A program made the translations under genes and the position numbers. A stretch of 64,000 nucleotides of DNA from Heterodontus francisci (lineage: Eukaryota), in contig NC_090404.1 in the NCBI RefSeq assembly GCF_036365525.1, positions 12,304,550-12,368,549 of the forward strand, in the 5' to 3' direction. Every line of letters begins with the position of its first letter. Position 1 is the first letter of the stretch. Positions 2,701 to 62,889 of the stretch are shown one piece after another. Below the pieces are notes generated by a model. That model was given only the letters and a program-made list of their open reading frames with translations, was not told the DNA's origin and made no database searches.

Positions 2701-3339
2701 ATTCAATGAACTTCAATTGCATCAATCAATAGTTTTGTAATTGCGCTCCTGAAATTGCTATTTGTGATATTTCTATATGTTGTACTGTGATAATTGCTAA
2801 CTATTTCTTTTCACTGCTAAGGGATGTTTTTATTTGGGATTTTCTATTTATCTTTTGTCTAACCCACTGACTGTCAGACAGAGTCTGGAACCATGACCGC
2901 ACAGCACAGCCGTATGGACTCCCGCAGGGTCCTAAACTCCACTGAACAAACCCAGCTGCACGATCGGAACAACCTAAAAATAACCGAGCACACACAAACA
3001 CTCATAGAAGTGTATGTATGTGCATATGTGGATTCGACAAAGATAGATGATTATCTTCACAAATTATGTTTTAACATTTTATTTTCTTCTATTCAAAACG
3101 TAATTCCAGATCATTTATTGCATTCGAGCAAGGCTCTAAATTTATTACACAAGATGATTTCGCTGTTTATTTTACATTATGCTACATCTCCGTCTATATC
3201 ACACTAGATACTCTCATTTATTGCTGCATTGCACAATGTGTCAATTTATATTGCACCAGATCCGGTTTCAGTTATTACTAGACCGTGCCATGTATCTGTT
3301 TACATCATATTAGCCTTTGTCTCAGTTTTCATTGCACTA

Positions 3340-4830
3340 CTCCAGTAGAAAAATAATGATTATGATAAACTTTAACAAAACACCAGTAGGACTCAGCTAG
3401 AGTATTGTGTCCATTTCTGGGTGCCAAATTTTCAGAAGGACATCGAGGCCCTAGAGAGCGTCCAGAAAGATTTTCTAAAATGGTACCAGGGATGAAAGAT
3501 TTCAGTTATGTGGAGAAGCTGAGGTTAAAAGGAGATTTTATAGAGACATACAAAATCATGAAGTGGTTTGATAGAATAAATAAACGGAAAATATATCCAG
3601 TGGTAGAAGGGCTGATAACCAGAGGACACAGATTCAAGGAAAATAGCAAAATAACTAAAGACAAAATATAAACTACTTGGATCTCGGAATATGGAGTAGA
3701 ATCCAAAAATTCGCAGATGACACCAAACTTGGAGTTGTGGCAAACAGTGAGGATGATGTAAATCGATTGCAACAGGACACTGATAGGCCAGCAGAGTGCT
3801 CAGAAAAGTGGCAGATGGAACTTAATGCTGATAAGTGTGAGGTGATGCATTTTGACAGAAGGAATATGCAGAGGCAATATGTACTTAATGGCACAGTTCT
3901 AAAGAGTGTACAGGAAGAGAGGGACCTTGGGATGCATGTGCATCGATCTTTGAAGGTGGAAGGGCATATTGAGAGAGTTCTTCATAAAGTATGTGCGATC
4001 TTGGGCTTCATAACACAGGCATTGAGTATAAAAGCAGGGACGTTATGCTGAACCTATATAAAGCTCTGGTTAGGTCACACCTGGAGTACTGCGTTCTGTT
4101 CTGGTCACCACACCTTTGGAGGGTCCTTGAGAGAGATTTATTAGAATGGTTCCCTGGATGGAAGATTTTAGTTATAAGGTTAGCTTGGAAAATTGGGTTT
4201 ATTCTCCTTAGAACAAAGGAGATTGAGGGGAGATTTAATAGAAATGTACAAGGTTATAAAAGACTTAGGTAAGTTAGATAAGGAAAAACCGTTCATATTA
4301 ACTAATAGTACAAGGACTAGGAGACACAGATTGAAGGTTTTGGGTAACAGATGCGGAGCAAATATGAGGAAGAACTTATTTTTATGCAGCGGATGGTAAT
4401 GATCTGGAACTCGCTGCCCATAAGGGTATTGGAAGTGGAGACAATAAATGACTTCAAAATAAAATTGGATGACCACTTGAAGTAAGTAGACTTGCAGGAC
4501 TACGAAGATCATGCGGGCGAGTGAGACTGACTGACTAGCTCTGTGGAGAGCCAGCATGGACTCAAAGGGCCACCTTCTGTACCGTAAATGACTGTAGACG
4601 ATAAGAGGGGGAAGATAAATGACAGAGCGAATTGTTATGTTTTGGAATGCACTGCTTGAAAGAGCGGTGGAAGCAGATTGAATAATAACTTAAAAAAAGG
4701 GAATTTAATAAATATTTTAATGGAACAAAATTGCAGGGCTCTGGGGAAATAGTAGGGGGCAATGGATAGTTCTTTCAAAGAGTTGGTACAGTCCTGAAAG
4801 GTTGAATGGTCTCTTTCTCAGCATTATCAT
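3340..4830 (+). mobile_element. Nested CR1-like LINE fragments (family A)
   Basis: RT motifs KFADDTKLG, WQMELNADKCEVMHF and LYKALVRSHLEYC, with frameshifts. Confidence 0.88.
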
Positions 4831-10250: not shown

Positions 10251-11211
10251 GTATGTTGATTTGGCTTGCTTAACAAGCCCTCTCATGGCCAAGCTACCAA
10301 TGGGTGGAGAAATGGTCAGTTTGTGATCCGTTTCCACAGCAGATAACGCATTTCTTCTTGTGATATTCAGTAGCATAGTGTTAATTTCTGAAATACCGTG
10401 TTCCTGATGACAGTATATGTTACACCATCTGTCGTTATTAACTTAGCTGCAATGATTTGGGAGACGGGGGATAGATTTGCTGATCGCAATATCGGTTCTG
10501 ATTCACTAGCTCCTCTTTTTCAAAAGCTGATCTGAATTTTTTGTGTCACTCCTTAATTATCAGGCAAGCGGACTTCTTTTACAGCTAATTTTCAAAGGGC
10601 TGGCTTAGAGTTACAGAATCAGGAGCAATTCGAGAAATACATGGAGAGAGACACACTTGCATAATGTGAGGCGTTTCTATTCACTCTGGTCCTAAATCGT
10701 GTAACTACAGCCATTCGCAGTGCAAATAGAATCACTTTATTAAAATCCTGCATTTAGTTGCATAAATTGAGCACAATTCATATTATCGTGGATATTTTAT
10801 TGGTATAGATTGAAGGGATAGATAGTGAGAGATGGAGCAACAAATACCCGCAGTCACTTTAGACCCTGGTAATGTAATTCAACCTAAGAAATTCAATTCT
10901 CTGTGAAGAGCTGAGGAAATAAAGGGATTCAATTCACAATCTGCAATGCAATTATTTACGACTGAACGTCTGAACTACAATATCTGTATTTAGTACCCAG
11001 TAATACATTGCATGGAAACCATACAGCCAAATAACTATCCCTGGATACAGATAAAAATTTCACATTTAATAATATCCCAGTATAATGATATGAGTCCATT
11101 CTGTTCGTGATGTGGAAGGTGGGATGTAAATCCAGTCACTGCATCTATCAGGGAATCAATAGGCGGCGCCTGTAACTCCCCCACCCCACCCCCACCCCCA
11201 CCTCTGCCAGG

Positions 11212-11219
11212 TATTTAAA
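11212..11219 (+). promoter_or_regulatory. TATA-like box of the VH gene
   Basis: TATTTAAA about 100 bp upstream of the leader ATG. The same GGTATTTAAA motif precedes the TCR V at 40866. Only an octamer variant (ATGTAAAT, 11124-11131) is present upstream. Confidence 0.6.
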
Positions 11220-11310
11220 TGCCAGTCAAAGAGACTGCAATACAACAGTCTGGGAGCGGGTTTGCTCAGTGAGTTCTTGCCAGAACGTTTTTCTGAAAAT
11301 TGCCAGAAGG

Positions 11311-11356
11311 ATGAGGTTGGCGATTTCTCTCAGTTTATCGCTGGTTTTCTTATCCC
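11311..11356 (+). pseudogene. IGHV: IgH V leader exon (MRLAISLSLSLVFLS)
   Basis: ATG at 11311, hydrophobic signal peptide, phase-1 GTGAGT donor at 11357. Confidence 0.93.
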
Positions 11357-11483
11357 GTGAGTAGTTTTTATTGTCCCAGTCTCTCACTGTTACTGTCTCA
11401 GTGTTAGTCACTCTCTGGAATGTTACAGAGTCAGGAATCATTTCACCAGGATTAATCCTCAGGGTTTTTGATGCTTTTCATAG

Positions 11484-11786
11484 GTGTCCATTCGGATGTC
11501 GTGTTGAGTCAACCAGAGGCAGAGACTGGGAGACCCGGAGGCTCCCTGAGACTGATCTGTAAAACCAGCGGGTTCCATCTTGGCACCTACGGTATGCACT
11601 GGATCCGACAAGTTCCCGGGTAGGGGCTGGAGTGGTTGGTTTATTACTATACTTCATTCATCAATAAATACGCCTCAGGAATTCAGAATCGTTTTTGCGT
11701 CCAAAAAAACATCAAGCAACATATTCGCTTTAGACATGAAGAACCTGAAGATCGAAGATACCGCCATCTATTATTGTGCAAGATAC
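11484..11786 (+). pseudogene. IGHV: Shark IgM VH exon, pseudogenised
   Basis: Acceptor ttttcatag, then [69 protein letters not shown] / ASKKTSSNIFALDMKNLKIEDTAIYYCAR. In-frame TAG at 11621-11623 and a frameshift near 11695. Confidence 0.96.
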
Positions 11787-11825
11787 CACAGTGAGAGGAA
11801 CCCAGGCTGAACCCGTACAAGAAAA
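11787..11825 (+). other. VH recombination signal sequence, 23-bp spacer
   Basis: CACAGTG (11787-11793), 23 nt, ACAAGAAAA (11817-11825). Confidence 0.93.
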
Positions 11826-12484
11826 GCTCGAGGGGAAATTCAACAACTCCTGTTACAGCCTAACGGTCCTTAATTGTATTTAATGCAATATTAACGGCAG
11901 TGTTCAGAACCAGATCATGTACCATTTCTCGAAAAACAGAGTAAAAATTCAATGGTGCAAATCTAAGACACTGACCGATATACTGATGAGCAATTTTGGC
12001 TGCGCTGATTTTTAAAGTTAACAGTGTCAGCAATTGTGGACCTGGATAAGATACTAGTTTCAATGTAACCGATACCGAGAGGGAGTTACTTGGAGCTGTG
12101 TTCAATTCCTACTGTATGGTGTATACTTTTGGATATACTCTGAACTAGATCGAAAGTGAATTTATATTTGAACCGAATGCTGCGAGGCAGTACTGAACAA
12201 ACCTGCGATCAATATCGTGGCAAGGGGTCGAAAATAACAAGGATTAAATAAAATAATGGACATAGATGTTTATAAAAATGTATAAAAGTCTTCTGCTTTA
12301 TTGGTGTTGATTGCCATGCCAACTCTGCAAAAATGCTTCAGAAGTATTCCAGTCTCCTTTATAAATATATTGACCAGTACAAACTGAACTATCTCACTGA
12401 TACACTCTTAAGGGAGTCGGAATCAGATTTTTGGATCGTCCTGTGGAACTTAATATCTGTATTTTACAGTTAACAGTCCACCAG

Positions 12485-12512
12485 GGTATTTGACATGGTG
12501 TATCTCACTGTG
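12485..12512 (-). other. 12-bp-spacer RSS 5' of the D-J segment
   Basis: On +: GGTATTTGA (12485-12493), 12 nt, CACTGTG (12506-12512). No nonamer-like sequence at 22/23 spacing. Confidence 0.85.
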
Positions 12513-12568
12513 ATATCCTGGGTATTTCGACTACTGGGGACAAGGGACCATGGTGACGGTGACTGCAG
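12513..12568 (+). other. IGHJ: JH segment with a D-like 5' extension (probable germline-joined D2-JH), YPGYFDYWGQGTMVTVTA
   Basis: WGQG motif, phase-1 GTAAG donor at 12569, and a 12-RSS directly upstream. Confidence 0.9.
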
Positions 12569-15500
12569 GTAAGAAACATGCACTTATTCAGTAACTGGTT
12601 CATTTGTGTCTTTATTTTATATTTATTATCATTTTAACGATACATTCGTTCACTGAAATATGGGTTCAGTGGATTCTGTATTGAGATATGCTGCAATATT
12701 TCATGTGATTCTGCTGCAAAGGGATTGTGGAATTCAACTCCTTCTCCACAAAAGCCAGTGCTGATGGATTGAGCCTCTGGTTGATGTGTTTTGTTGTTTA
12801 ACTGCTGATGAGGCAGTGTGTCTCACTGTTGTAAAATATTTGCGGGTTTCTATAATGCGTGTTCTCGGTAATATCTAGTTGCTACAAACTTTCTGATCGA
12901 GTGCAAACATTAGCTGTTTAAATATGTTTGTAATAAGATAGTAGGTAGAAAGCTTTAGCTGTTAAACAATGTTACGACAATTTACTGTATTCTATTTATT
13001 ATAATTAAATTATTATCCCTTAATCTTATGCTCAGTACCGCTCATATATAATAAATGAAATGTTACTGTAACTAAGAATTACATAAATAACAAATTTTCA
13101 GCATTGTTCAGATTTAAGCTGATATGACTTCATTTGTTATAATGTAATAATATAGCCCAATATTACTAAAATATGCTATCGTCTCAATATTATTTTATTA
13201 AACATGATCAATATATTCGCAATTTTTTCGCTTTGTGTTAACTATTTATTTGTTTGTTTTAATAAGTAAGTTGTTCAGTGATTGGTAGGTTCGGTGGATT
13301 CTGCATTGAGATTTTGTTGCTGCATTGTTACATTTGATTCTTGATGAACGGGTTTAGAGAGTTAAACTGCTGCCTTGCAGAACGTTCTGTTGAGGAATTC
13401 GGCCGCTCAGTGGTGTGATTTGGTGATTACACGCTGAGGAGTGTGTGCACGTAAGTTACTTTGAATACCTAAATTTTGTAAAACTCTTGGCCTTTCTATA
13501 ATGTTTAATCCCAGTGACATCGAGCAGCAACTGATGCAAACATAATTCTTAAAATGGTTTGAAAGAAAATTATCAGCAGCAAACAGGAAATTTATAGAAC
13601 TAAACATCACTCAAAAATATTTTACTGTTTTAAGTGATAATTTAGTATTAAATTATTAATCTATGGTTCACGATGTTCATAATTAATGTGAGAATTCCTA
13701 CTCTAATTAAGAACTACATAATTAGCATTTTCAGATTGAAGGAGAATTAACTTAATATAACTCAAATGACTATTACACTGTATTATCTCTCATTAATGAG
13801 TTATGCTGCAGTATGAATATTAACTTATTAGACACAAGTCACCTTCCACAATCTTCTGTACAATCAGCCCAATTAATGTGACCAGAATTTTTTCAAATTA
13901 TGCCCGACATTAATTAATTAACAACATGCTTATTACACCGCTGTGTTGAGCTTGATGATATTTTTAAATAGGCTACCTGCCTATTTTGCACAGTTGAATG
14001 TACAGATTTTATTTACTTATAAGTTAATTGTAAATTGCAGTTTGTCCATTTAATATATCTGCCGGGTTATTAAATTCTTAATGTGCACCCGAAACCATGT
14101 TATTCCTGTTAGATGGCGAGATTTTTGTCCGTAAACTAATCCTAAACGCGTTGCAAGATCACAGGCTGAGAGTTATGTGTCGATGGCGGTCTAAGAACTG
14201 TTCATATACTTCTATTTCAATTCAAAGTCTATATAAGGCTGCAGACTGACAAAACGCATTACAATTCAAACAGATCAAATTAATTGAAAAGGTTAATATT
14301 GTTTTTGAATTTAATTGGAAAAAATGTTTCCCATAACTGTGCTGTATACGGGATAGAAATATAAGCAAAGGACAGGCAATGTCTCAAAGTTTTGTTTAAT
14401 TCTCATTCATATTAAAATGACCAACAAAACCTCTCCTGCATTTGCTCTTTAAATTTCAGTGTCGCAGAATATTTGAATGAATTGCTATCTTTAAATTTTG
14501 TACTGATCATTCTGCAAGTTATCTCAATAAATAACATAGTATATAGTTAACAACTAATTTACGGGGATCGTGTGCATTACAGGAGTAAAATGTAAAACCC
14601 TGCCTGTGTTATTAAACATCGGAGGCTCTGTTGTTAACCGGAAACTGAAGGGGTGGTTTTAAATTATTTTTATGCAATTAGTATTGTGCACAATGTTAGA
14701 TTTTGAAAACCTGATTATATATAGGCAATATTTCAGACCATGAGATGTGACGCCTGCCAGACTTTGAACTATTTAAAATAGTCCACTTCTAAATTCATCG
14801 TGTGAAATACACTTTAACAATAGAGGAAGTCTATGTTATATCAGCGTGGTCAGAAACGTTCAAGTTTGCATGATGTAGATAACAAGCAGGACGGTAATAG
14901 AGTTACTGATCATTTTAAACTATTCAAATATACTTTGATTTAACGAAAAATAACGTATTTGTCTGAATTCCGTTACCTGTTAAGATGATGTTTAATGTTG
15001 ATCAAGTACCATTCAATTTAATTAAAAACTTAATATTTCACATGATACCAGAAATAAACAGGTCTAGAATTACTATTAACTATTTTTACATACTGGATTA
15101 TATCATTAGCTACCATCAATATTGACTTAGAATATAATATCCGTGTTAATTCATTAAATCATGAAATTATATCAAACCAGTGGGCAATTGGTTCGCAATG
15201 CAAATGTTTCCAGGTTTGTTAAATTCTTACCCTGTCACTGAGTTCATGTTTCGGGCAGCAAATTACCCTAGAATGTGAATTATTTCGGATGTACTTGCAT
15301 TCGGGAAAATGAAATCTGGCACAGTTTTCAAGATTGCATTGAAGGAGAAACTTTTGGAAGTCGAAAGGGTTCTTGAAATGAATATCAGTTTAATTCAAAA
15401 GAACTTGCGGGCATGGAGTGGTCTCAATTTGACAATTGATAAATTAGAATGAAACTGCTTCATTGAAATTGAGAGACTGAACAGATCTATCTGCTGAGAG

Positions 15501-15789
15501 CACGCTTGTTGCACTGTTTGTATCTGTTCTGTTTTTTTGCATCTGCTCACTGTGTCGGGACCAGGAGACCGCCCGACTGGTTGTAAATCTTCTGGTTCTT
15601 TCTCCTGTATTTCAGGGCGTGCAATTTGATCCACTTATTTAAGAAGTGAGTATCTGTAAGAAATGTGAAAGTTTGACTTTATGTTTCAGGAGACGCCTCA
15701 GAAGTGAGATCAGTAATCTAGAATGTGACACTCAGCAGCAGCAGTTCACAACACGACAGACAAGCTGTAAAAGGAGCTTAGATCAGTTT

Positions 15790-16340
15790 CTAAACCGTGC
15801 CATACCCATCCTGGGAGTGTTTAATTGGGCAATACTTCCAGAGCTTTACTCTGTATCGAGCCCGTGCTGTATTGTCCCCTGATTGCTTGATGAAGTAATG
15901 GACGGAGCTTTATTCTGTATCTAACCCATGCTGTGCGTTTTCTAGGAGTATTTGATGGGACAATGTAAAGGGAACATTACTTTGTATCTAACCAGTGCTG
16001 CATCTAACCTGGGAGTGTTTGATGGGAAGTGTAGAGGGAGCTTTACTCGGTATCTAACCAGTTGTTTTTTAACTCTGTATCTAACCCCGTGCTGTACCTG
16101 CCCTGGGAGTATCTATTGCACCAGTATGGAGCAACGTTTACTTTGTATCTAATCCGTGCTGTACCTGCCCTGGGAATGTTTGATGGGACACTGTAAAGTG
16201 AAGCTTTACTTTGAATCCAACCAGTGACCTGGAGGTGTCTGTTGCACCAGTATAGAGCGCCCTTTACTCTGTATCTAACCAGTGTTGTACCGACATCTAA
16301 CCCTTGTTTGTTTTGTCCGGCAGTGTTCAAGGAACCTTAA
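15790..16340. repeat. ~65-bp tandem repeat (CTTTACTCTGTATCTAACCCGTGCTGTACCTGCCCTGGGAGTGTTTGATGGG...)
   Basis: Tandem degenerate units. Reverse-orientation copies at about 27690-27900 and 54200-54545. Confidence 0.85.
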
Positions 16341-17019
16341 CCTGCACCTAATCAATAAACTGCGAGTGCTTGAAGCAGAGATATAAAATAAATTTCTCAA
16401 TTGCCCAGATGAAACAACACACATTTATTGGTTTTAACATTCCTTCTGAAAAAATAAACTGCCAAAATTTTAATGAATTAATGTTTAAACATTTTAAATA
16501 TCAGATAATTATTGAATGAGATTGGTCTGATCTTGAGCGTGCTTTCAGAACAAACATTTCCAGGAAGTGACTGTAACGCTCCAGAAAGCAGCGTCTGTCC
16601 TGATCTGATAGGAGGCTGGAATTTATTTTGACGATTGAAATGGAGGAAGCAGGAGGCTCCTGCTCCTACTTACCATCATGATAACTTGACATTTGAAAGC
16701 ATTATTTCATTCTATTCTTTTTAATAAGGTGACAGTCAGCGATTAACTGGCGTGAGATGCGGCCATTGTACTGGGTTACAATACAAGGCACAATGTTATC
16801 GTATTGCACTCTGTGGAATATTTAAAGAAGTACAGTCAGGCTGCAATGATTCGTCATACATAACAAGTTTTAAGCCTCTGTGATAGAGTCCAATTGACTC
16901 ATTTGAATCAAATTCTTAAGGTCATTTTATCTTAAATATCCTCAAATAAATCTGATTCAGCTGTTCACACTTAAGAAGATTTCCTCCCATTAAATCGAGA
17001 AGTACTAATTCTGCTGAGT

Positions 17020-19080
17020 CATGTAGTTCCATAGAATCATTTGATCACAAAATTTTACAGCACGGAAAGAAACCATTCACTCCAAGGTGCCTGTGCCAGC
17101 TCTGAAAGATCTGACTAAATTAATCCCACATCCCAGTTTTTACTCGTATATCTGAAATTGAATCCTGTTGAAGTGTCTGTCCAGTTGCCTGGTGCACAGC
17201 ATAAATTAATAAACCTCTATGTGCAAAACATTATCCTAATTTCCCCACTAGTTCTTTCGCCAATTATTTTAAATCTGTGACCTTTGGTTTGCCAGAGGAA
17301 ACAGTTTCTCTCTATTTGCTCAATCAAAATCTCTCCTAATTTTGAATACTTCTATTACATCTCTTCTCAATCCCCTAAACCGTCTCCACTCTAAGGAGAA
17401 CGATCCCAGTTTCTCCAATTACTCTACATAACTGAAGATTTTCATCCCTAATAAATCTCCACAGCACCCTCGTCAATGGCTGTCATCTTTCCTAAAATGT
17501 GATGCCCAGAAGTGTAGAACGTAGCTGAGGCCTAACCAATGATTTGTAAATGATTAGTGTGACCTCCGTGTTTTTGTGTTACCTGTCATTTTTTACAAAG
17601 TCATACAGCCCATGGAATAAAGGGGCAGTGGCAACACGAATACAACATTGGCTGAATGACAAGAAACAGAGAGTAGTGGTGAACTGTTGGTTTTCTGATA
17701 GAAGGAAGGTAGATAGTGTGATCCTCAGGGGTCGGTTAGGACCCCAGCTTTTCATGCTATATGTTATATACATGGGTGTACAGGGTACAATTTCAAAATT
17801 TGTTGATGACACAAAACTTGTACGTGTTGTGAACTGTGAGGTGGATAGTGATGGAATTCAAAAGGACATAGACAGGCGAGTGGAATGGGTAGACAAATGG
17901 CAGATGAAATTTAATGTAGCGAAGTGTGAAGTAATTCATTTTGGTAGGAAGAATGAAGAGAGGCAATATAAAATAAAGGGTGCATTTGCACAAAGCATTG
18001 AAGGTGGAAGGGCAGATCATTAATAAGACATACGGTATCCTGGGCTTAATAAATAGGGACAGAGAGTAAAAAAGCAAGACAATTCTGATAAATCTGCATA
18101 AAAACATTGGTTTGGTCTCAACTGGCGTATTGTCTCCAATTCCATACATTACATTTTTGGACGTATGTGAAGACATGAGAGAGATTGTGGAAAAGATTCA
18201 CGTGAATGGTTCCAGGGATGAGGAACTTCATTCACGTAGTTGGATTGGAGAAGCTGGGGCTGTTCTCCTTGTAAAGGGGAAGATTCAGAGGAGATTTGAG
18301 AGAGGTGTTCAAAATCATGAGGGGTCGGGACAGAGTAAATAGGGAGAAACAGCTCTTATTGGCAGAAGGATCAAGAACCAAAGGACACCAATTTAAGGTG
18401 ATTGGCAAAAGTAGCAATGGCGACATGATGAAAAACTTTTTTTATGCTGCGAGTGATTAGGATCTAGAATGCGCTGCCTGAGATTCTGGAGGCAAATTCA
18501 ATCGAGACCTTCAAAACGGAATTGGATAATTACCTGAAAAGCAAAAAAAAAATGCAGGGCCACGGGGAAACGGCGGGAGAGTGGGACTAAGTGAGTTGCT
18601 CTTGCAGAGAGCCAGCATTGACACGATGGACCAAATGACCTTCTTCTGTACTGTAACCATTCTATGATTCTAAGATATGTTTACTTACCTTCTTATAAAC
18701 TTGCCTTGTCACCTTCCAAGATTGGTGAATATACATCCCCAGGGCCAGGTTCCTCTGCTATTGCCCCCAACGCCCGCCCCCAGAAACCCACTAAAAATGT
18801 ACTATTTAGCTTATACTACCTCTTCCTCCCAAAGTTTGTCACTTCACATGATCTGCATTAAATTGTACCTGCCATCTTCCGCCTATTTCACCAGAATGTC
18901 CATGTCTTCCTGAAGTCTGATGCTCTGCATTCATTACTTACGAATCTATCAAATTTTATATCAGCACAGTAGTTCGCAATTGCATTCTATATGCTCAAGG
19001 CCAGGCCATTTAGATATAACAAAATAAACAATTTAACGAATACTGGCAACTGCTGGTTCCTACTGCGTACTTCTTACCTG
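17020..19080. mobile_element. Cluster of CR1-like LINE fragments in the J-Cmu intron (- / + / -)
   Basis: The + fragment at about 17590-18670 encodes SKFVDDTKL and WQMKFNVAKCEVIHFG. It is flanked by minus-strand fragments. Confidence 0.8.
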
Positions 19081-19418
19081 GTAGAGAAAAAGAGCCAAAT
19101 TGATGAATAAATACAGGCTGAAATAGAGGAGGGACGAACTCCTCTGCTCTTCTATTTTAATGATTCAATCAAAGTCCTTTATTGAGGCGACTTCAAAAGA
19201 TTCTTCTATTTGTAATGTGATAGAAGTCTGGGAAAGTGTTTTTAGCTGTTGATCAGGTGATCGACAGGCGCTGATCAGCAACAATGGAAATGATGGGGGC
19301 GAATGTATTTTTTGGTCGGCATATTATGGAACGAGTTGATACTGCAGTCAAACGTTGAGTTTTTTTTAGGAGCACGAATCACAGCGGCTAACTTGTTCAA
19401 TCTGCCATACTTTTCCAG

Positions 19419-19718
19419 CGACACCGTCTCCCCCGACCATCTACGGCCTGCTCTCCTCCTGTGAACAACCCAACACCGATGGTTGAGTAACCTACGGCTG
19501 TTTGGCGATGGACTACACCCCTGAAATCACCACCGTTTCCTGGAAGAAAGATAAACAGCCGATCACCACTGGATTCAAAACTTACCCGTCAGTGCTGAAC
19601 AAGAAGGGAACCTACACCCTGAGCAGCCAGTTAACCATCACCGAGTCAGAGGTGGGAAGCAGCAAAATCTACTGCGAGGTTCGACGCGGAGAGTCGGTCT
19701 GGGTGAAGATTGGACCAG
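19419..19718 (+). pseudogene. IGHM: IgM constant exon Cmu1 with premature stop
   Basis: Acceptor ttttccag; [99 protein letters not shown]; TGA at 19484-19486; donor GTTAG at 19719. Confidence 0.95.
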
Positions 19719-20025: not shown

Positions 20026-20343
20026 GTTATTATGAAAGTTACAGAGTCCATCCAACTGTTATCCTCACTCAGAGTACCAATGAAGAAATCACAAGCAGCA
20101 GATTTGCAACCGCCGTGTGTTCAATCATCGATTTCCATCCAAAATCAATAACCGTGAGTTGGTTGAAGGATGGACAACCCTTGGAGTCGGGCTTCGTCAC
20201 CTCTCCCGTCTGTGGAGCGAACGGGAATTTCTCAGCAACCAGTCGGTTGACAGTCCCCGCTGGGGAATGGTTCACCAATACGGTCTATATCTGCCAGGTC
20301 TCTCATCAAGGGGTTACCCAAAGCCGAACAACCAGATCTCAGG
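20026..20343 (+). pseudogene. IGHM: IgM constant exon Cmu2 (open frame)
   Basis: C1-set Ig domain ...VHPTVILTQ...[20 protein letters not shown]...[14 protein letters not shown]; AG/GT boundaries, phase 1. Confidence 0.93.
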
Positions 20344-22483: not shown

Positions 22484-22792
22484 TTCCACCCTCATGCAAT
22501 GATCCAGTAATTACACTACTGCGACCATCAATAGAACAGGTCTTACTGGAGGCGACGGTGACCTTAACCTGCATCGTGTCTAATGCTCCATATGGAGTCA
22601 ACGTGTCCTGGACCCAAGAAAAGAAGCCTTTGAAATCAGAGATTGCCGTCCAACCCGGAGAGGATCCCGATAGCGTGATCAGCACCGTAAACATCTCGAC
22701 ACAATCCTGGCTGAGTGGGGCTGGGTTCTACTGCGTGGTGAGCGATCAGGATCTGCCGACTCCTCTCAGAGATTCCATCCACAAGGAAGAAG
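22484..22792 (+). pseudogene. IGHM: IgM constant exon Cmu3 (open frame)
   Basis: [42 protein letters not shown]...[22 protein letters not shown]; acceptor ttttacag, donor GTGAG at 22793. Confidence 0.94.
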
Positions 22793-23275
22793 GTGAGCGG
22801 AGAAATTGAAGCAATAAGTGAGAGGTTGTGCCTATTTCCGGTGTTTGTGAAAGGGCTGATTCATATTATTCAGTGCAATAATGGATAACGGAATCCTCTG
22901 GAACCCAAGATAATCTGTTTAAGGGGAAGCTAGATAAGAACGTGAGGTAGAATGGAATAGAAGAATCTGCTAGCAGGGTTAAGAGAATTAAGGTGCGAGG
23001 AGATTTGTGCGCAGCATAAACACCAGCGCAGACTAGTTGGATGAATGGCCTGTTCCTGTGCTCCAAATTCTATATAATTTTCCAGTTTAACCGCTTAACT
23101 TCTCAGCGAGAAGGATTGTAGCCGCCTCTTCTCCGGGTTGGAAAACAGGACAGGCCCAGAGGGGAAAAGGAAAATCTTTAAAATTCTGGGCAAAGCAAAT
23201 TTCTTTCACATCTAACCACCGGTTTTATTGTCGCTGGGATCCTGTTTATTGACATCTATCTTAATTTTTCTGTAG

Positions 23276-23667
23276 TTAAAGATCTGCGGGAACCATCTGT
23301 GTCTGTCCTCCTGCACACGGCAGAAGAAGTCTCCACTCAGAGGTTCCTCTCCCTGACCTGTTTAGTGAGAGGTTTCTCCCCCCGAGAGATCTTCGTCAAG
23401 TGGACCGTCAATGACATTTCGGTGAATCCCGGCAACTACAAGAACACCGGGGTGATGGCGGAGAACGACAATAGCTCCTTCTTCATGTACAGCCTGTTAT
23501 CCATTGCAGCGGAGGAGTGGGCCAGCGGCGCTTCTTACTCCTGTGTGGTGGGACATGAAGCGATCCCCTTGAAGATCATCAACAGAACAGTTAATGAATC
23601 CAGCGGTAAACCGAGTTTAGTGAACATTCCGCTTGCACTGTTGGACAATGTCAATTCATGTCAATGA
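23276..23667 (+). pseudogene. IGHM: IgM Cmu4 plus secretory tailpiece (open frame)
   Basis: [12 protein letters not shown]...[17 protein letters not shown]...[23 protein letters not shown]|[20 protein letters not shown]; internal G|GTAAA donor at 23606 for the membrane form; penultimate Cys retained. Confidence 0.95.
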
Positions 23668-26585: not shown

Positions 26586-26713
26586 ATTCCTTAGATCACA
26601 TCTGGATTCAAGACAATGAGGAGGAGAGCGGCAACATCTGGACAACCGCTTCCACGTTCATCATCCTGTTCTTCCTGAGTATTTTCTACAGTACTGCCGT
26701 CACTCTGGTGAAG
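26586..26713 (+). pseudogene. IGHM: IgM transmembrane exon TM1, splice donor apparently mutated
   Basis: [43 protein letters not shown] with the conserved Ig TM motif, followed by CTGAGA where GTGAGA is expected. Confidence 0.9.
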
Positions 26714-29339
26714 CTGAGAAGCTTCAATCCACTCACACTTCAATCTGACTGAAGCTGTTTGACAAATCTCTAAAATGCTTCATGGAACAAAAATAAAAAC
26801 TTGAGATAATTGCCCCAGTCCATGAAATCTCAGCTTTATTCTTTTTTTTTTTGCTGGTCAATTGATTGGTTGAATTTTGGGCGCTGTGGATTTTCGTGAT
26901 CTGTTTATTAACATTTCTGAATCAAAAAATAATGTCCTCTTGGTGCCTCTAAAAGTAAAACACCTTCAGTTGACAGATCCGAATCTTCAGCTAAGAAAAA
27001 TCATCAGTGACATTTTCGTCTCTCTGTTTGAAATCTGTGAGATAATCGTGACTATAATATAAAGACATATCAGCATTGTACTATTCTTTGAAATGCATGT
27101 ATAAATAAGTAATTTTCTCACTCCTTATTCACAATTGTTTCCTTCCCTTTACGTTGAGCCTCTGTTTTCTCTCTGTGGTCTTTTACATTTATATAAACTG
27201 CTGGCAGCTCAGACCGGAAGTGTTCTATTCTCAACATGATAATTAATTGTTTTAATCACTTTGTATTAACTGTAAAAAAAGCTGTAAAATTTTCTCTGTG
27301 AAACTGTTAATAAATCATGCTTGAAAAATTGATTACGTTGGACTTTGCAGAATAATTTCCTCCATGGCTTCTCCATACCGCTCCATTTTCCATATCACTC
27401 GATTTTCTCCCTTTTCCCTGGCAGATATTTTTCAATCAGTACTGTTTGGGTTGTGTTGTTGTGTTTGTGCATTGGACCCTTTTGCTAAGGGGAATGGCAC
27501 CACCCAGTGTCCCATCAGAGTAAAGACACTTTTAGCTCTGCCTGTTGAAGTCAAGTCCCAGAGGCAGTATGACTGCACAGCGGCCAGGAGAACCTCAATG
27601 ACTTCTCTTGTCGACTGTCACAATCACGTGCCAGGTTATATGAAAGAGCAGGGCTGTGCTCCACCACAGCTTGATACAGTACAGTATATGGAAGAATAAA
27701 TCTCCCTCTACACTGTCTAATCAAACACTCCTAAGGACATGTACAACACTGGTTAGGTACGGGGAGATGTTCCCTGTATAGTGTCCCATCAAACACTCCC
27801 AAGGCCTTGTACAACACAGGTTGGGTACAGAGTGATGCTCCCTTTACACTGTCCCATCAAATACTTCCAGAACAGGTACAGCACGGGTTAGATATATTAC
27901 CTGGGCACAACAGTGAGCACACACCCTGGGAACAATTCCCAGAGGCTAGAGTCTATTTGACACACCAGGGAGCACAATCCCTGGGAATGATCACAAGACC
28001 ATGAAGCCGACCCGACACAGAGACTCTATCTTCGCATTTTCTATGATACACACAGACAGATTCTCCACAAGCACATACACGCAAACACACACACATACGC
28101 ACACTCCACTTTTCTGTTCTGCCCACGCTGTCTCTCTGCCTCTACCTTTTCTGTTAGATCCATTAATCCTGCCACAGTCTCCTGTTCCCCTGATTACCTT
28201 TCTCCCTGCCAGCTCCATTTCTTCTGATGCAAATATCCCTGAACACACTGAACATCACCCCAGGGATCCTCTCTCCCTGCACCATTCCCTGTGATACTAT
28301 CTCCCTGAACTCACTGAACATTACTCCAGGCATTCGCCAGTGACCTTGACGCTGTCCCTTCCTGAAGTTTCTCGCGACCTCCTTCACCATCTCATCACAT
28401 TCTTTCGGCGCCTCCCGGCCACGCGAACTTCTGCAGATGTTTCTGCTGAGAACCGAGATTCTTTTGAGATTTTCCTTCCACTGGGCAGCCGCTTTTCCTC
28501 TAAACATCTGCTGGTCAGGTGCGACGTCTCCTGTGGTTGAATATCGCATTAGTTAAGGGAAGAGAGAATTAACGGCCCTTCTGAAGGGCTCGGAATGATA
28601 TTTGGGAAAGGCTGGCGTTGATGCTTGAACTTTATCCTTGCCCCACTCTCTCTCCCTCTTCCACCCCACTGCCGTCATTCGGGGCTACCCTGACCTCTAA
28701 GCTTATCTTTAACCTCCATCAATGTCTCTCTCGATCTCTCTGCACATTCGCTAGGCTCGAGCAGACATAATCGGTGCATGGCCCCTTTACATGCCAGGCC
28801 AGACCAATCTTGGGTCACAGCCGTGGCTCATGGGTCACAGAGGTTAAGCGGAGACTGCAAACGGCACGGGACCGCTTGACCCATAATTAATTCGGGGAAA
28901 CAACCAATCATGGTCCTGCGAATTTCGGAAAGCATTGTGGCGTCATCCACAGAAGCGCAAACCGGCGTGCGCCACGTTTGTGTGACGTTCCGCACTGCCC
29001 TTGTTTGTCGTTTATTTAAAAGAGGAACTCGATTGAAAGGAAAACAGACTTCAGTTTCCACCAAAATAACAGCTCCACCTTAATCTTCAAAAGTGAAACC
29101 TTAATCTATGAAAGTGAAACTTTGGTCAGCGCTGTGGTTAAACCGGTTGTGGATGTAAGCATGTACGGCCGGTGCCACAAATAGGGCCTTTCCCAGCCGC
29201 TATGAATTGTGGGAGTCGTATCTCTCCGTGGCCCAGTCATGAACTGTGAATTCAAACCCAACCTCCTTCCAGCAGCGAACTGCCCGGGTTGTTGGTTTTG
29301 ACTGACTCAAAAATGAGGTGCTAACCTAATGAAGCTACG

Positions 29340-41140: not shown

Positions 41141-41240
41141 GTAATTTAACACATTTAATCTTTTTTTCTCATTTCCAGTTTAAATCTGAATTTTAAACTG
41201 TCGCCGGTTTGATCTTTTCCTGTTTGAACATGTTTTTCAG

Positions 41241-41549
41241 ATTTTAGTCAAGGAAATTCTGTCACTCAGCTACTGTCCTCAGATGTTAAGACAGAAGGTG
41301 AAACGGTGACTTTAAGCTGTACCTATGACACTACATGGAGCAGCTATGATTTATATTGGTACCGGCAACACCCAGATACACAGCCCGAATTTATAGTGAG
41401 GAAATCCTCAGGTGGTTATGAAGATAAAGCAGATTTTGCTAAAACCCGTTTCTCTGCTGAGCTCCAGACTTCGACTAAATACATCAGTTTAACCATCTCG
41501 TGGCTGCAGCTGACTGACGCTGCCGTGTATTACTGCGCCCTCTCAGACT
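41241..41549 (+). CDS. TCR alpha/delta-type V gene 1, V exon (intact)
   Basis: DFSQGNSVTQLLSSDVKTEGETVTLSCTYDTTWSSYDLYWYRQHPDTQPEFIVRKSSGGYEDKADFAKTRFSAELQTSTKYISLTISWLQLTDAAVYYCALSD; both Cys, WYRQ and YYCAL present. Confidence 0.93.
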
Positions 41550-41588
41550 CACAGTGATGGAAAACAGCCTCACCCCTGTACAAAAACT
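41550..41588 (+). other. 23-RSS of TCR V gene 1
   Basis: CACAGTG, 23 nt, ACAAAAACT. Confidence 0.96.
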
Positions 41589-49771: not shown

Positions 49772-50218
49772 GTAAGTTCACAATTGACACAACGCTGCCT
49801 TTCACATCATATTTAATCGGTCTGTTCTCTGAACACAAGGGAAACAATAGATTGATCTAAAGTGAGCAAAACAATCCGAATGCACCTTTATTCAAAACTG
49901 AACACTAAGGTAACTCGACAAGCTCCACGAGTAAAAGAAATTGGAAGTTGTGAGCTGGGATTACAGGAGAATGACAGACAGACCCATTCATCCCCCACCA
50001 GGCCTAATGACCGACACTGACACGCGAGTCTTAACCCGACAGACAGTTTGCCGTTTTCCCTTTATGCAGTCGATCCCAGAATTATCCTCTTGCAGCTCCT
50101 GAATTGCGGAAAATGTATTTGTGTTTAACTGTCCTGATTTAATTCTCAGAGTGGCGAAGGGCTGATTCTGGGGGTGAAGTGATATTGTTGAATTGAATAA
50201 CGCTCTGCGTTCTTGCAG

Positions 50219-50525
50219 GACGTTGCCGAGGAGACTCAGTTTCACAGACACCGGCTGTAATCACAGTAAATGAAGGAGACGATGTTGAGTTGCACTGTAA
50301 TTATACAGCTACAAGCACCAGCACTCCAAACCTATTTTGGTACCGCCAGTATCCCAGCAGATCCATAAAATATCTACTGCAGAAAAACAAATACAGTGAG
50401 GAACGAAATAGATTTCTCAGCGACCGTTTTTCAGTGCAGCTAGATGATTCGAACGGAACCGTCCCGCTGGAAGTGTCTAAAACCGAACTGCCCGACTCTG
50501 CGGTGTATTACTGCGCACTGAGCCC
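50219..50525 (+). CDS. TCR alpha/delta-type V gene 2, V exon (intact)
   Basis: GRCRGDSVSQTPAVITVNEGDDVELHCNYTATSTSTPNLFWYRQYPSRSIKYLLQKNKYSEERNRFLSDRFSVQLDDSNGTVPLEVSKTELPDSAVYYCALS; acceptor tcttgcag. Confidence 0.93.
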
Positions 50526-50564
50526 CACAGAGACACAGAGCTTGGCTGAACCTGTACAAAAACT
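50526..50564 (+). other. 23-RSS of TCR V gene 2
   Basis: CACAGAG, 23 nt, ACAAAAACT. Confidence 0.92.
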
Positions 50565-51370: not shown

Positions 51371-52164
51371 TCTAGAATGCAATGGCCTAATGGTGAAGTG
51401 TGACAATTCTTTCACCTACTTTTTTTCCTCAGTGTATCATAAACAGACAGACTGACAATTTTATTGAACATTGTGCACCAAAGGAATTGTTATTGTTGAC
51501 CAAAAATTACAAATATCCAGAGAACATCTGAACTCTCAAGTTCCTTTATTCCTCCGCAAGAGTCAGCGCCAGAGTCAGTGACAACATTCACTTATCGTAC
51601 GTTGTGATAAACTTTCTTCGATTTAAAAGTGCATCTTTTGCCGTTTGAAATCTCACGTTAGTGGTTAACTTCATTTTCTGACTGTTTCCACAGCGATCAG
51701 TAGAGTTTCCTCTTTGCTTTGCGCTGTTACAGTCCGTCTTTTACAGACTGTGTTGATGAGTGGTCAACAGCTCTTGGGACTGCCCGCACCCCATCCCCAT
51801 CCCTCCAGCCACCCGCCCACCCCCACCCGCCCCCGTCAACACCCGGATTCAGTCTCCAATCCGCTCAGTGATTCTCTCTGCTCAACAGCCAACCTGCAGT
51901 CTGTCGTGACCCAGGGAGCACCCGGCTGGAAGGAAGTTGGGTTTGGATTGACTCCGTTGATGACTGGGCAACGGAGGGCTGCGGCTCCCACAATTCACAG
52001 CTGTTGGGAAAGGCCTGGGATGTCGCTGACAGTCACCGTTCAGTCAATGACGCTGCACTCTGAAGGTATTGCGTCATCTACCGTCAACAAACGAGACAAT
52101 ATTGCTTCTGTTTTTGGGTGTGGGAGCGCCCTCTCGTGAAGAGTATGTCAACTCTCTGTGTGTT

Positions 52165-52450
52165 TTTTTTTGCATGGGGTCCGCTGTATCTCTGCAGCAG
52201 TGTAGGCTCCATGGCACAGAAATACACGGCGATGTCGCAGATCAGAACATTGATGATCGATCGGTCAGTGAAGCCGGGGTTCCGGTTTACTATACCTGCA
52301 ATAAAATAAAACTGGTACTGAGAAGGCTGCTGGGGGTACCGAGTGCAACAGTACACTCTCGGGCTAAGATCGCTTGTTTTCAAGGTACAGTTTAGTGTGA
52401 CATTGCTTTCTTCTACCGTCTATTTAGGAACCGGGAATAAATTACTTTAC
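52165..52450 (-). pseudogene. Inverted TCR V pseudogene with degenerate RSS
   Basis: Minus strand PK*TVEESNVTLNCTLKTSDLSPRVYCCTRYPQQPSQYQFYFIAGIVNRNPGFTDRSIINVLICDIAVYFCAME. Stop at 52420-52422, conserved Trp replaced by Cys, Cys-Cys distance 57 versus 72 in V gene 1. RSS is TACACTG, 24 nt, GCAAAAAAA. Confidence 0.8.
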
Positions 52451-54150: not shown

Positions 54151-55139
54151 AGCAGATTCTTCCAAGTTCGTTATACCACAATTCTATACATAGTAACGTT
54201 TCCTCTACACTGGCTCATCAACTTCGTCCATCTCACCTACCGCACCAATTAGATACAGGATAAATGTATATAGAGGTTGTCCATCAAACCCACCACTCTT
54301 ATGAAGAACAAGTTACGTGCACAATGAAAAAAATCTCCCACTACACTATCCCTTCAAACATTACCAGCGGAGGTACAACACGAGTTATATGCAGAGTAAA
54401 ACATCCTTTATGCTAGTCGAACAAACACCCAGGTACACCATGGGTTACAGTTATGCTGCCTGCATGTTACACCATCAAGCACTCCAAGGGCAGGTACAGC
54501 AGGGGTTAGATACAGAGTAAATCCCCACACAACTAAATCATCAAAATAACTTTTAGGTTCCATCATATCAGAACAGGCAATGTTTTCTGGATCGTTACCG
54601 TCACTTTCTAAACTGATTTGGATGTGAGCTGAGGATCAGATCAATCTCGTTCAATAACTATATGATATTCAAAATGTTGAACCTTCATCAAAAACGGGGA
54701 TTTTTTAGAAAGAAGTTTAATCTCAATTTATGAGCTGCTGTTTCATCGAGGCAATGGATTAATGCGCTAGAATATGCTTCCGTTTATCTTAAACTAGGAC
54801 CCATCTCAGCCCTACTACACTTGATAATGTCCCAATTTAGATTACACCACGCCATGTCTCAATAAATGCCGCGCTCGGCCATGTCCCATTTTATATTACA
54901 CCAGGCCTTGTCTCAGAATTGCAAGAGTCTATGTATTTGTTTATATTTCATAGAGGACCTGCCTCAGCCATAATACAACAGACAAGATTTCGGATTATAT
55001 TACATTGGATCCTGTCTCAGTTACTGTTGCACTAGGCCATCCCTCTTTTTATATTTAATTCGGTCCTGTCTCAGACAATCCCTCTGTTTATTTTACACAA
55101 ACTCTCTCCCAGTTAATTTTGTACCAGGCCATGCCTCAC

Positions 55140-56347: not shown

Positions 56348-56792
56348 TACAAAACATTATTCTTAACCTAATACAGGTTCTGGGGTAACGTAAGAAGTAA
56401 CTGAGGCTGTAATATAAACAGTCATGATCTAGTGCTTTGTAACTGAAAGAGGGCCCGGTTGATATCATGAACCAATGCGCTGTCCTTGTCACACCTGTAC
56501 TGTTGAGGTGGACAATTAAAACTCCTGTCTCCCCCATACTCTGCCATTGTCAACATTCCTCCCCTCAACCAAGATCATCAAAATTCCTTTAACAGGAATT
56601 TAGCCACTTTGCACATTTGCTGATGTTTCTGTGAGCAAATCAACAGCGTTCATCTGCAAATAGCTGCAGTTTAAATTCTTTGGGACATCCTGGAGTAGGT
56701 AATGAGCTGGAACACGAATGAAAGTTGTTTCTTCATACATTAATACCAGAAATATCAGAAACAGTAACTGACATTAACATTTTCACAATTGG

Positions 56793-56824
56793 CGCAATGG
56801 CAAGCATTGGTCACCAGGTGGCAG
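56793..56824 (+). promoter_or_regulatory. Extended CTCF-like site
   Basis: CGCAATGGC, 6 nt, TGGTCACCAGGTGGCAG. Confidence 0.6.
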
Positions 56825-57094
56825 TGAAAATCTGAATGTTTACGTTGCACGAAACAGACACTGCCGCAATTATTACTGCATTACAGAATATCTCTCTTCA
56901 TATTACAGTAGGCCCTGTCTCAGGTATTATTGCACTAGACAACGTCTCTGCTTATACTACAGTGGGTCCTGTCTCAGTTATTACTGCACTCGTACATGTC
57001 TCTTTTTGGAACGCTAGGCCCCATCTCTGTCATTACTGCACGAGAACATGCCTCTGTTTATAATACACTGGGCCCTGTCTCAATTATTACTTTC

Positions 57095-60220: not shown

Positions 60221-60811
60221 AAACAAACAACTGTGTCCTGTTTGACCATCACCCATGTGTTCACTAACCTTGTATGCTTTAATATCAATGGGAACATGGT
60301 CCAGTTTACTATAAATAGTGAGAGTGGCTGGTTCAAATTAGCTGAGTCAGAACATCGTGTAATAGAAATAGAGGCATTGTGTAATCAATTTTGAAATGAT
60401 ACAGAGTCTAGTGTGCTGTAAATAGAGAGAAGGCCCTGTTTAATATGAGGAGGCACATGGCCGAATGCACCAGAAATTCAACAGGGCTGAGATGATATTA
60501 TGAACCATTAATCCCTCCTCCACCTCTTTTCTGTTGATGTGGATATTGAAGCTCCCATAGCCCAAATAGTGTGTCCTGAGCAACATTCTTCGCTTCAACC
60601 AAGATCTACAAAATTACATGAACAGGAATTGAGCCACTTTGCTCCATTGCTGTTGTTTCTGTCTACAAATTGGCCTCCTTAATCTGGAAATATATGCACT
60701 TTAAATCCTTTGGGACCTCCCACAGAAGGTGATCTGCTGGTACATCAGAACAATTTGTATCTTGACATTAGTATCAGAAATAGCATCTGACATCAACATT
60801 TTCACAGTAGC

Positions 60812-60843
60812 TGCAATGGCAATGTTTGTACAGCAGATGGCAG
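60812..60843 (+). promoter_or_regulatory. Extended CTCF-like site
   Basis: TGCAATGGC, 6 nt, TGTACAGCAGATGGCAG. Confidence 0.55.
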
Positions 60844-61269
60844 TAAAACATGGTTTGTACACATAACACGAAACAGACAGTGCCTCAGTTGTTGCTACAC
60901 TAGACCATGTCACTGTTTATATTAACTTAGGCACTGTCTCAGTTATTATTGCACTCGATCATGTCACTGTTTATATTACTCTAGGCACTGTCTCAGTTAT
61001 TGCCGCACTGGGTCACATCTCTTGTTTATATTACACTAGTATGTCTCGCTAATAACTGCACTAGACCTTGTTGCTACTTACATTACAATGGACCTTGTGT
61101 CAGTTATGACTGCACGTTACCCAGTCTCTGTTTAAATTACACTAGGCACTGTCTCAGATATTACTGCACAAAACCATATCTCTGCTTATATTACACTAGG
61201 CACTGTCTCACTTACTACTGCACTGGACGTTGTCTCTGTATATATTACACTAGACCCTGTCTCAGTTAT

Positions 61270-62560
61270 CACTTCTTTCCATTCACGTGATGTGAGCATC
61301 ACTGGAAAGGTACATATTTACTGCCTATCACTAATGGCCCTTGAGAAGGTGGTGGTGAGCCGCCTTCTTGAACTGCTGAATTCCTTGTGATGTAGGTGCA
61401 CACACAGTGCTGTTAGGGAGGGAGTCCCAGGATTTTGACTCAGCAAAAGTGAAGGAACGGTGATATAGTTACAAGTCAGGATGATGATGACTTGGAGTAG
61501 AAATTGCAGGTGGTGGTGTTTGCGGATTTGGAAGGGTGCTAACGAAAGAGCCTTGACGCGATGCTGCAGTGCATCTTGTAGATGGTACACATAGCTGCCA
61601 TTATGGTGGAGGGAGTGAATGTTTAAGATGAGGTGCCAGGAAAGAGGGCTGGCTTGTCTTGGATGGTGCCGAACTTCTTGAATGTTGTTGGAGCTGTATT
61701 CACTCGGCAGGTGGCGATAATCCGATCCCACTGCTGACTTGTGCTTTGCAAATGGTTGTCCGGCTTTGTGGAGCCAGGAGGTGAATTACTCTCCACAAAA
61801 CCCCTAGCCTCTGACCTGGTCTTGTAGCTACAGCTGGTCCATTTCAGTTTCTGGTCAATGGTAACCCTCAGAATATTGATGGTGGTGGATTTGGTGATCG
61901 TAATGTGGCTGAATATCAAGAGAGATGTTCAGATTCTCTCTTTTGGCGATGGCTATTGGCTGGCACTTGTGTGACACGAAAGATAAGTGCCAGTTATCCA
62001 CCCAAGACTGAATTTTGTCCAGATATTGCTGTATGCACGCTCGGACTGCTTCATTTTCTGAGGATTTACGAATGGAACTGAACCCTGTGGAATTTTATTT
62101 GAACATCCCCACGTCTGACCCTGTGATGGAGGGACTGTCATTGATTAAGCAGCTCCATAACTTGCCGCCCCCTCGCCAAGCTGCTCCAGTACAGCTACAA
62201 CACTAGCATCTACCCAGCAATGTGGAAAATTGTCAAGGTATGTCCTGTCTACAAATAACAGGACAAGTCGAACCCGGCCCCATCAGTCTACTCTCAATCG
62301 TCAGTCAAGTGATGGAAGGTGTCGTCAACAGTGCTATCAAGCGGCACTTGCTTAGCAATAACCTGCTCAGTGACGCGTAGATTGGGTTCCGCCAGGGTCA
62401 CTCAGCTCCTGATTTCATTTCAGCCTTGGTTCAAACATGGACAAAAGAACTGAAGTCAAGAGTGAGGTGGGAGTGACCGCCTTTGACTTCAAGGCCACAT
62501 TTGACCCAGTATGGCATCAACTGCAGCCAGTAGGAATCAGGGGGAAAACTCTCCGTAGGA
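61270..62560. mobile_element. Two family B LINE fragments head-to-head (- 61270-62150, + 62170-62560)
   Basis: Similarity to 9300-10250 on the minus strand and to 8770-9180 on the plus strand. Confidence 0.8.
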
Positions 62561-62889
62561 ATAACTGAGACAAGGACCAGTCTAATATAAAGAGAGGTAG
62601 AGTCTGGTACAGTCATAACTGAGACAGGACCTATTGTAACATAAACAGAGACATGGACTAGTGCAGTAATAACAGAGACAGGGCCGAGTTATCTGTTTTA
62701 TGCCTGCCTTCCCCACCAAGCACCAACACACCCCCACCTCCCATCCCCCCCCCACAATACCACCCCACCCCGCCCCTTAAATAGAGTGATTATATTTGCT
62801 AATTTCCAGTGTGATCGAACCTCTCCAGAATCTAGCCAAGTTTACAAAAACTAAAACCAACGCATTTACTACCTCATTAGCCACCTTTT

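Follow-up and report, generated by a model that had tools for sequence, protein, structure and literature searches.

A 64,000-nucleotide stretch of Heterodontus francisci DNA (NC_090404.1, positions 12,304,550 to 12,368,549 of the forward strand; hereafter the window) carries a dead IgM cluster in which a RAG-type coding joint has probably fused D2 to J in the germline and a separate deletion has probably removed D1, giving a V(23)-(12)DJ arrangement. The layout itself can be read directly, as V(23)-659 nt-(12)DJ-C-mu. A first-pass annotation of this DNA had proposed that D2 is joined to J while V stayed unjoined, and this is now supported in essentially all DNA of the sole sample that contains the locus. 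The same annotation held that the join leaves a single-step V(23)-(12)DJ configuration. That layout is indeed seen, but a D2-J join alone would give V-D1-D2J, so that the loss of D1, which had been overlooked, is needed as well.

One VH, one JH, four C-mu exons, a secretory tail and a transmembrane exon lie on the plus strand in one minilocus, as in an IgM cluster, and in tblastn the V, J and four C-mu exons follow in order with 60-88% identity to IgM P0019. The VH leader exon (11311..11356) runs from ATG to a GT donor and is followed by the VH exon (11484..11786), the first 67 amino acids of which are 65-72% identical to shark VH proteins P0018-P0020. This exon is interrupted by an in-frame TAG (11621-11623) and, near 11695-11697, by a frameshift, seen as a tblastn match divided over two frames; both V lesions are present in the sequenced sample, where a contig from run X1 covers 11443-11973 with 0 differences. 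The V 3' RSS, heptamer-23-nonamer, follows at 11787..11825 (plus strand) with a perfect heptamer and 3 mismatches in the nonamer, and its presence indicates that V is unjoined. C-mu1 (19419..19718; 69% to P0019) has an in-frame TGA at 19484-19486, a stop read from the window sequence only, and C-mu2 (20026..20343; 60%), C-mu3 (22486..22793; 71%) and C-mu4 with the secretory tail (23278..23667; 83%; Pfam C1-set E=1.8e-20) are open. The transmembrane exon (26595..26752) was placed by motif scan and sequence, and its frame continues for 14 residues past ...TLVK, after which, going by the usual structure of this exon, we presume the splice donor to lie; loss of this donor may be a fourth lesion. 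Because the reading frames of V and C-mu1 are not open, the cluster is a pseudogene, and it cannot work as a light-chain-like receptor gene. The earlier idea of a light-chain-like configuration therefore fails for a working gene, the stop and frameshift in V and the stop in CH1 having gone unnoticed at the first pass. In the J-C intron, a perfect heptamer with a 24-nt spacer and a 3-mismatch nonamer (15515-15554, minus strand) is probably a chance occurrence.

Upstream of J stands a 12-spacer RSS on the minus strand (12485..12512), the putative D2 5' RSS, composed of a nonamer with 2 mismatches (12485-12493), a 12-nt spacer (12494-12505) and a perfect heptamer (12506-12512) that directly precedes ATATCCTGGG and then the JH coding sequence. 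By chance, a perfect heptamer with a 12-nt spacer and a nonamer of at most 2 mismatches is expected 0.01 times per 64 kb (200 shuffles). With a 22- or 23-nt spacer at this site the nonamer position would have 7 or 8 mismatches, so that a 23-RSS does not fit. A relaxed RSS scan of 11780-19500 (at most 2 mismatches in the heptamer, 3 in the nonamer and 4 in total; spacers of 11-13 and 21-24 nt) yielded only the V 23-RSS and the 12-RSS at 12485-12512 in the V-to-J interval, and none in 12513-12568, between the D remnant and J. The scan and the spacer test thus uphold the earlier statement that a nonamer-12-heptamer is the only RSS before J, and what characterizes a joined unit is seen here: both of the facing RSSs and the D2-J spacer are absent between the fused segments.

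JH (12523..12568, plus strand) lacks an RSS of its own and is the sole J-like copy in the 64-kb window; its translation, YFDYWGQGTMVTVTA, ends at an intact GT donor at 12569, 14 of 16 amino acids agree with the J of IgM P0019, and a PstI site lies within it at 12563. The 10 nt before it (12513..12522, plus strand) are a putative D2 remnant without a 3' RSS that may include N/P bases, the name D2 being assigned from position, without a reference D2 sequence for comparison. The limits first given for the D2 and J parts, 12485-12521 and about 12522-12568, describe the layout correctly, but the D part occupies about 12513-12522 and J begins at about 12523.

Reads of unjoined paralogous JH segments provide a reference for this boundary. 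In run X5, from another sample, 6 and 7 reads represent two paralogous JH types whose heptamer lies 14 nt 5' of the Trp codon, versus 22 nt from heptamer to the J TGG in the window, and the 5' flank of the paralogs is identical to the window flank at 6 of 15 positions. The longer distance and the different flank together indicate that the 12-RSS is not native to an unjoined JH. Since none of these 13 reads has a 12-spacer nonamer end, the sharing of the 12-RSS and 5' sequence by unjoined paralogs, raised at the first pass as a finding that would undo the join, is not what the reads contain. Judged from paralog J length only, JH is about 2 nt shorter at its 5' end, and the roughly 10 bases 5' of J would be D plus any N/P additions. 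D2 segments are 11-15 nt long, and with this length neither breakpoint of the D2-J junction is more than about 5 nt away from the heptamer border expected there. V(D)J joining predicts such a placement, and random deletion would rarely produce it; the chance of a random deletion landing so near both borders is about 1 in 1000, a rough figure whose D side assumes that D2 length. The paralog picture comes from 8 of 150 pieces and 10 of 60 loose ends, with no unjoined paralog as a full sequence. Among these pieces and ends no D2 5' flank was seen running into D2 and a 3' RSS, and among the pieces the paralog intersegments are about 82-86% alike and no close unjoined sister gene was seen.

The locus is contained in four of eight sequencing runs, all from one sample that is possibly the assembly's own, and reads were compared from four of the eight, namely X1 (sample S1, with the locus) and X5, X6 and X7 (other samples). 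In X1, a contig covering 12032-12558 crosses the junction with 0 differences and 0 gaps at a depth of 8.72, and the flanking contigs, identical to the window, have depths of 9.2 (11443-11973) and 8.38 (12553-12800). The junction depth in this run is therefore 0.99 of that of the flanks, with one junction sequence only, and the join is present in bulk, non-clonal DNA of S1, possibly the animal material from which the assembly was made. Since somatic shark junctions are each unique (PMC2435157), a clone-specific join could not reach 0.99 of flank depth, and the worry that the assembly had taken up a stray somatic B-cell read is answered by the same depths. In addition, an unjoined allele sharing this flank should have broken the X1 contig where D meets J, going by how unitigs break, and the contig runs through unbroken. 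Runs X5, X6 and X7 gave 45, 34 and 2 aligned reads, 0 of the 81 being at least 99% alike and none lying over 12226-12495, and the junction was uncovered in both of two RAD runs picked for the PstI site in JH. We conclude that the join is very likely germline in the one animal sampled.

The V end and the J start are 736 nt apart, and the 659 nt between the V 23-RSS and the 12-RSS are made of two paralog-aligned blocks. The first, a putative V-D1 intersegment (11826..12199, plus strand), is bounded by a sharp divergence: paralog contigs align up to 12199, and, among those listed, four leave the window at exactly that position and two joints start there. The second, a putative D1-D2 intersegment (12269..12484, plus strand), has two paralog contigs aligned within it, one over 12269-12469 after 144 unaligned letters and one over 12333-12433, colinear with its upstream block. 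Between the blocks, 12200..12268 is the probable site of D1 loss and holds no RSS relic; in fact, the relaxed scan found no D1 with 12- and 22/23-spacer RSSs anywhere in 11826-12484. Over 12200-12332, one paralog contig has 247 letters versus 133 in the window, and this difference of 114 nt, taken from 1 contig, is greater than a D1 unit of 78-87 nt. A paralog loose end at 12199 has, as its letters 13-21, AGTATTTGT, which is 2 mismatches from a reverse nonamer. A nonamer-like motif of this kind occurs in 2738 of 63970 window 30-mers (4%), and with four loose ends of median length 12 no more than 2 contigs can contain it; the D1 heptamer position lies beyond the 30 letters of the longer loose end. 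If D1 stood at the 12199 break, 453 nt would separate it from V and about 370 nt from D2 in the paralog, both inside the intersegment range of 250-500 nt given in PMC5192425. V-to-J distances in nurse shark, derived from PCR sizes, are 775-835 nt for V-D-DJ, 376-399 nt for V-DDJ and 1211 nt when unjoined (PMC2435157), and since 736 nt is nearer V-D-DJ than V-DDJ, it favours a D2-J join.

From these alignments, D1 and both its signals were probably lost by a separate deletion. With the left break about 40 nt away from where the D1 coding border would be and neither D1 heptamer kept, the loss is unlike a RAG coding joint, and a signal joint or hybrid joint at D1 was rejected on these grounds. 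It is most simply read as an ordinary deletion, though a resected RAG break may also have caused it. A decayed D1, sought by aligning the D flank locally to the spacer, was also rejected, since, of 300 shuffles for each strand, 20 (plus) and 210 (minus) reached its score. When eight nurse shark primers (PMC2435157) were compared with 11200-13500, the JH primer alone fitted, with 1 mismatch, and the best matches of the others, among them those directed at the two spacers, D1-D2 and D2-J, and at the D1 3' flank, had 4-6 mismatches in 17-18 nt, a cross-species comparison that is uninformative and places none of these elements independently. Three further X1 joints, 11641-12529 (depth 8.33), 11783-12273 (7) and 12199-12534 (5), could be germline-joined paralogs (VDJ, VD-D-J, V-DDJ). 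These and the joint 11777-11888, which may be joined paralogs or merely diverged spacers, were not counted as germline joins, and a fifth X1 joint, 11922-12004, was likewise left out.

The sequence of events most likely to have produced this locus begins with RAG, in an ancestral germ cell, cutting at the D2 3' 12-RSS and the J 23-RSS. Joining would have removed the D2-J spacer of about 400 nt and trimmed a few bases off each coding end, in keeping with the trimming and P addition that germline joins carry (PMC2193153, on PMC2193156) and with the activity of RAG in germ cells argued for the joined NS4 light-chain genes (PMC2193156, PMC2193153). A deletion of about 114 nt would have taken out D1, its start lying about 40 nt ahead of the D1 coding border rather than at a RAG cut site, and V and C-mu1 would have been inactivated, the join, the deletion and the inactivation occurring in any order. 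The leftover 23/12 pair would permit one-step V-to-DJ joining by RAG in lymphocytes, with a non-functional product. An unlikely extension of this scheme is that the D2-J join and D1 loss came first and formed a working heavy-chain cluster, with a single V(23)-to-(12)DJ step like that of a light-chain or TCR-alpha gene and a short, half-fixed CDR3, which later died here and has intact orthologs expressed in related sharks. If true, it would be a natural case of a two-D heavy-chain locus turning D-less.

The identity of the 10 bases before J is where competing explanations diverge from a D2-J joint with separate loss of D1. The 12-RSS could belong to D1 and the bases could be a trimmed D1-D2 fusion from two germline joins, with no D1 deletion; this V-D1D2J arrangement needs no non-RAG event, its V-DDJ form is a somatic intermediate in nurse shark (PMC2435157), and the 10 bases were named without a reference D1 or D2 sequence. 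We nevertheless regard it as quite unlikely, because V-DDJ predicts about 376-399 nt from V to J versus the 736 nt seen, because a single intersegment of about 400 nt is expected where 659 nt separate the RSSs, and because two paralog-aligned blocks, a sharp break at 12199 and a paralog with 114 more bases and a nonamer-like motif all speak for a lost D1. Conversely, there may never have been a second D, the cluster belonging to a subfamily built with one D only, V(23)-(12)D(12)-(23)J, in which a long spacer follows V and the sole D was joined to J, and the 114 nt of the paralog being an unrelated insertion. The window has no D1 RSS trace, the nonamer-like motif stands at the 4% chance level and a D1 heptamer would lie beyond the printed letters, all of which suit such a subfamily. 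We give it little credence, however, given the four contigs that diverge at exactly 12199, the two joints that start there, the implied spacings that suit a two-D layout, and the two D segments given for shark IgM clusters (PMC2435157, PMC5192425). A cluster of the form V D1-D2J//C, with D1 retained, does not fit either, about 114 nt being missing relative to the paralog.

The bases might also include no D at all, if JH is unjoined and its own RSS was switched from 23 to 12 through a hybrid joint or a deletion in the spacer; in horn shark clusters, germline hybrid joints are described as swapping RSSs (PMC2193153). This is highly improbable in view of the 10 extra bases between the heptamer and J, the flank that is 6/15 identical to that of the unjoined paralogous JH, and the disappearance of the full D2-J spacer length. 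Finally, since shark thymocytes and B cells contain V-D-DJ intermediates (PMC2435157) and the coverage of the locus comes from one animal, a somatic lymphocyte rearrangement or an assembly error might have been caught in the genome sequence. The junction contig at 0.99 of flank depth and its single junction sequence make this hardly credible, and a somatic D2-J join would leave D1 in place.

Further along the window, two open V-set exons with good 23-spacer RSSs are found on the plus strand at 41228-41588 (Pfam V-set E=3e-16) and 50197-50564 (E=3e-15). They are 27-36% identical to VH, and we take them, by this identity and their motifs, to be of TCR alpha/delta type. The IgM pseudogene would thus appear to sit in a TCR-V-containing region, with V segments of that type downstream of it. 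On the minus strand, 52084-52419 is a decayed V-like frame (NVTLNC...IAVYFCAM) that has no Pfam match at E 0.01. Degenerate 27/54-bp satellite-like repeats occur on both strands (1434-1853, 3205-3340, 54758-55080, 56753-57089, 60772-61280 and 62594-62695), and LINE-like fragments of decayed reverse transcriptase, many in number, take up the rest of the window. Since the 23-RSS of the dead VH (11787-11825) still looks usable, this V could pair non-productively with TCR-delta D segments; joins of IgM V to TCR-delta are reported in nurse shark (PMC5931798). Searches of other collections with the exact J pattern returned 0 loci in metagenome_contigs and 0 in viral_contigs, and when the former was scanned with VH protein, 410 sequences matched the pattern and 0 were confirmed as relatives. 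Two short motifs of the window brought up 4 papers, all on unrelated subjects.

The locus offers a clean sequence-level case of a J-side germline join, the kind least often listed in reviews, and one route by which a V-D-D-J cluster could collapse into a one-step V(23)-(12)J-like unit, and it bears on the interconversion of D-containing and D-less antigen receptor loci. Its bearing on antibody function is slight, the gene being dead and seen in one animal, unless an intact ortholog appears. If orthologs were mapped across species, the join could mark germline RAG activity at a datable point.

A germline D2-J join with an unjoined V is already published: PMC2193153, citing a review by Litman et al., lists horn shark and skate clusters as 'V DD-J//C, VDJ//C, or V D1-D2J//C'. 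Where other reviews list joined forms (PMC5192425, PMC4279169, PMC3308330), they name only VD-J, VD-DJ and VDJ, which bears out the first-pass remark that J-side joins are less often described. A D1-less V(23)-(12)DJ form was not found in the literature searched, the primary horn shark and skate papers lying outside that search, and such a cluster is a modest variant of the long-known pre-joined shark genes. The closest counterpart is the 'V D1-D2J//C' cluster of horn shark and little skate (PMC2193153), in which D2 is likewise fused to JH in the germline and V remains unjoined with its 23-RSS; the window cluster differs in lacking D1 with both its RSSs and in being a pseudogene.

Nurse shark Group 2 IgM has somatic intermediates, V-D-DJ and V-DDJ (PMC2435157), with the same type of junction, the V-to-J length of the window cluster being near that of V-D-DJ, and the distance from J to C-mu1 is similar (about 6.85 kb in the window versus 6.3-6.8 kb in nurse shark). 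Those intermediates, however, are clone-specific and absent from red-cell DNA (PMC2435157), whereas the join in the window is at full depth and lacks D1. The nurse shark NS4 light-chain genes and IgM1gj (PMC2193156, PMC4279169) resemble it in a joining ascribed to RAG in germ cells, there with trimmed ends, but are complete VJ or VDJ joins, some of them expressed in pups, in contrast to a partial join in a dead gene. As to its neighbourhood, great white shark and stingray have IgM clusters and 'IgM pseudo?' entries among TCR alpha/delta V segments (PMC12227049 table S1), and the elasmobranch antigen receptor complex described in that paper resembles the window, where TCR V-type segments lie 15-25 kb beyond a full IgM cluster. 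The clusters of PMC12227049 were compared as gene models, whereas the window cluster is described here at the level of its RSS anatomy.
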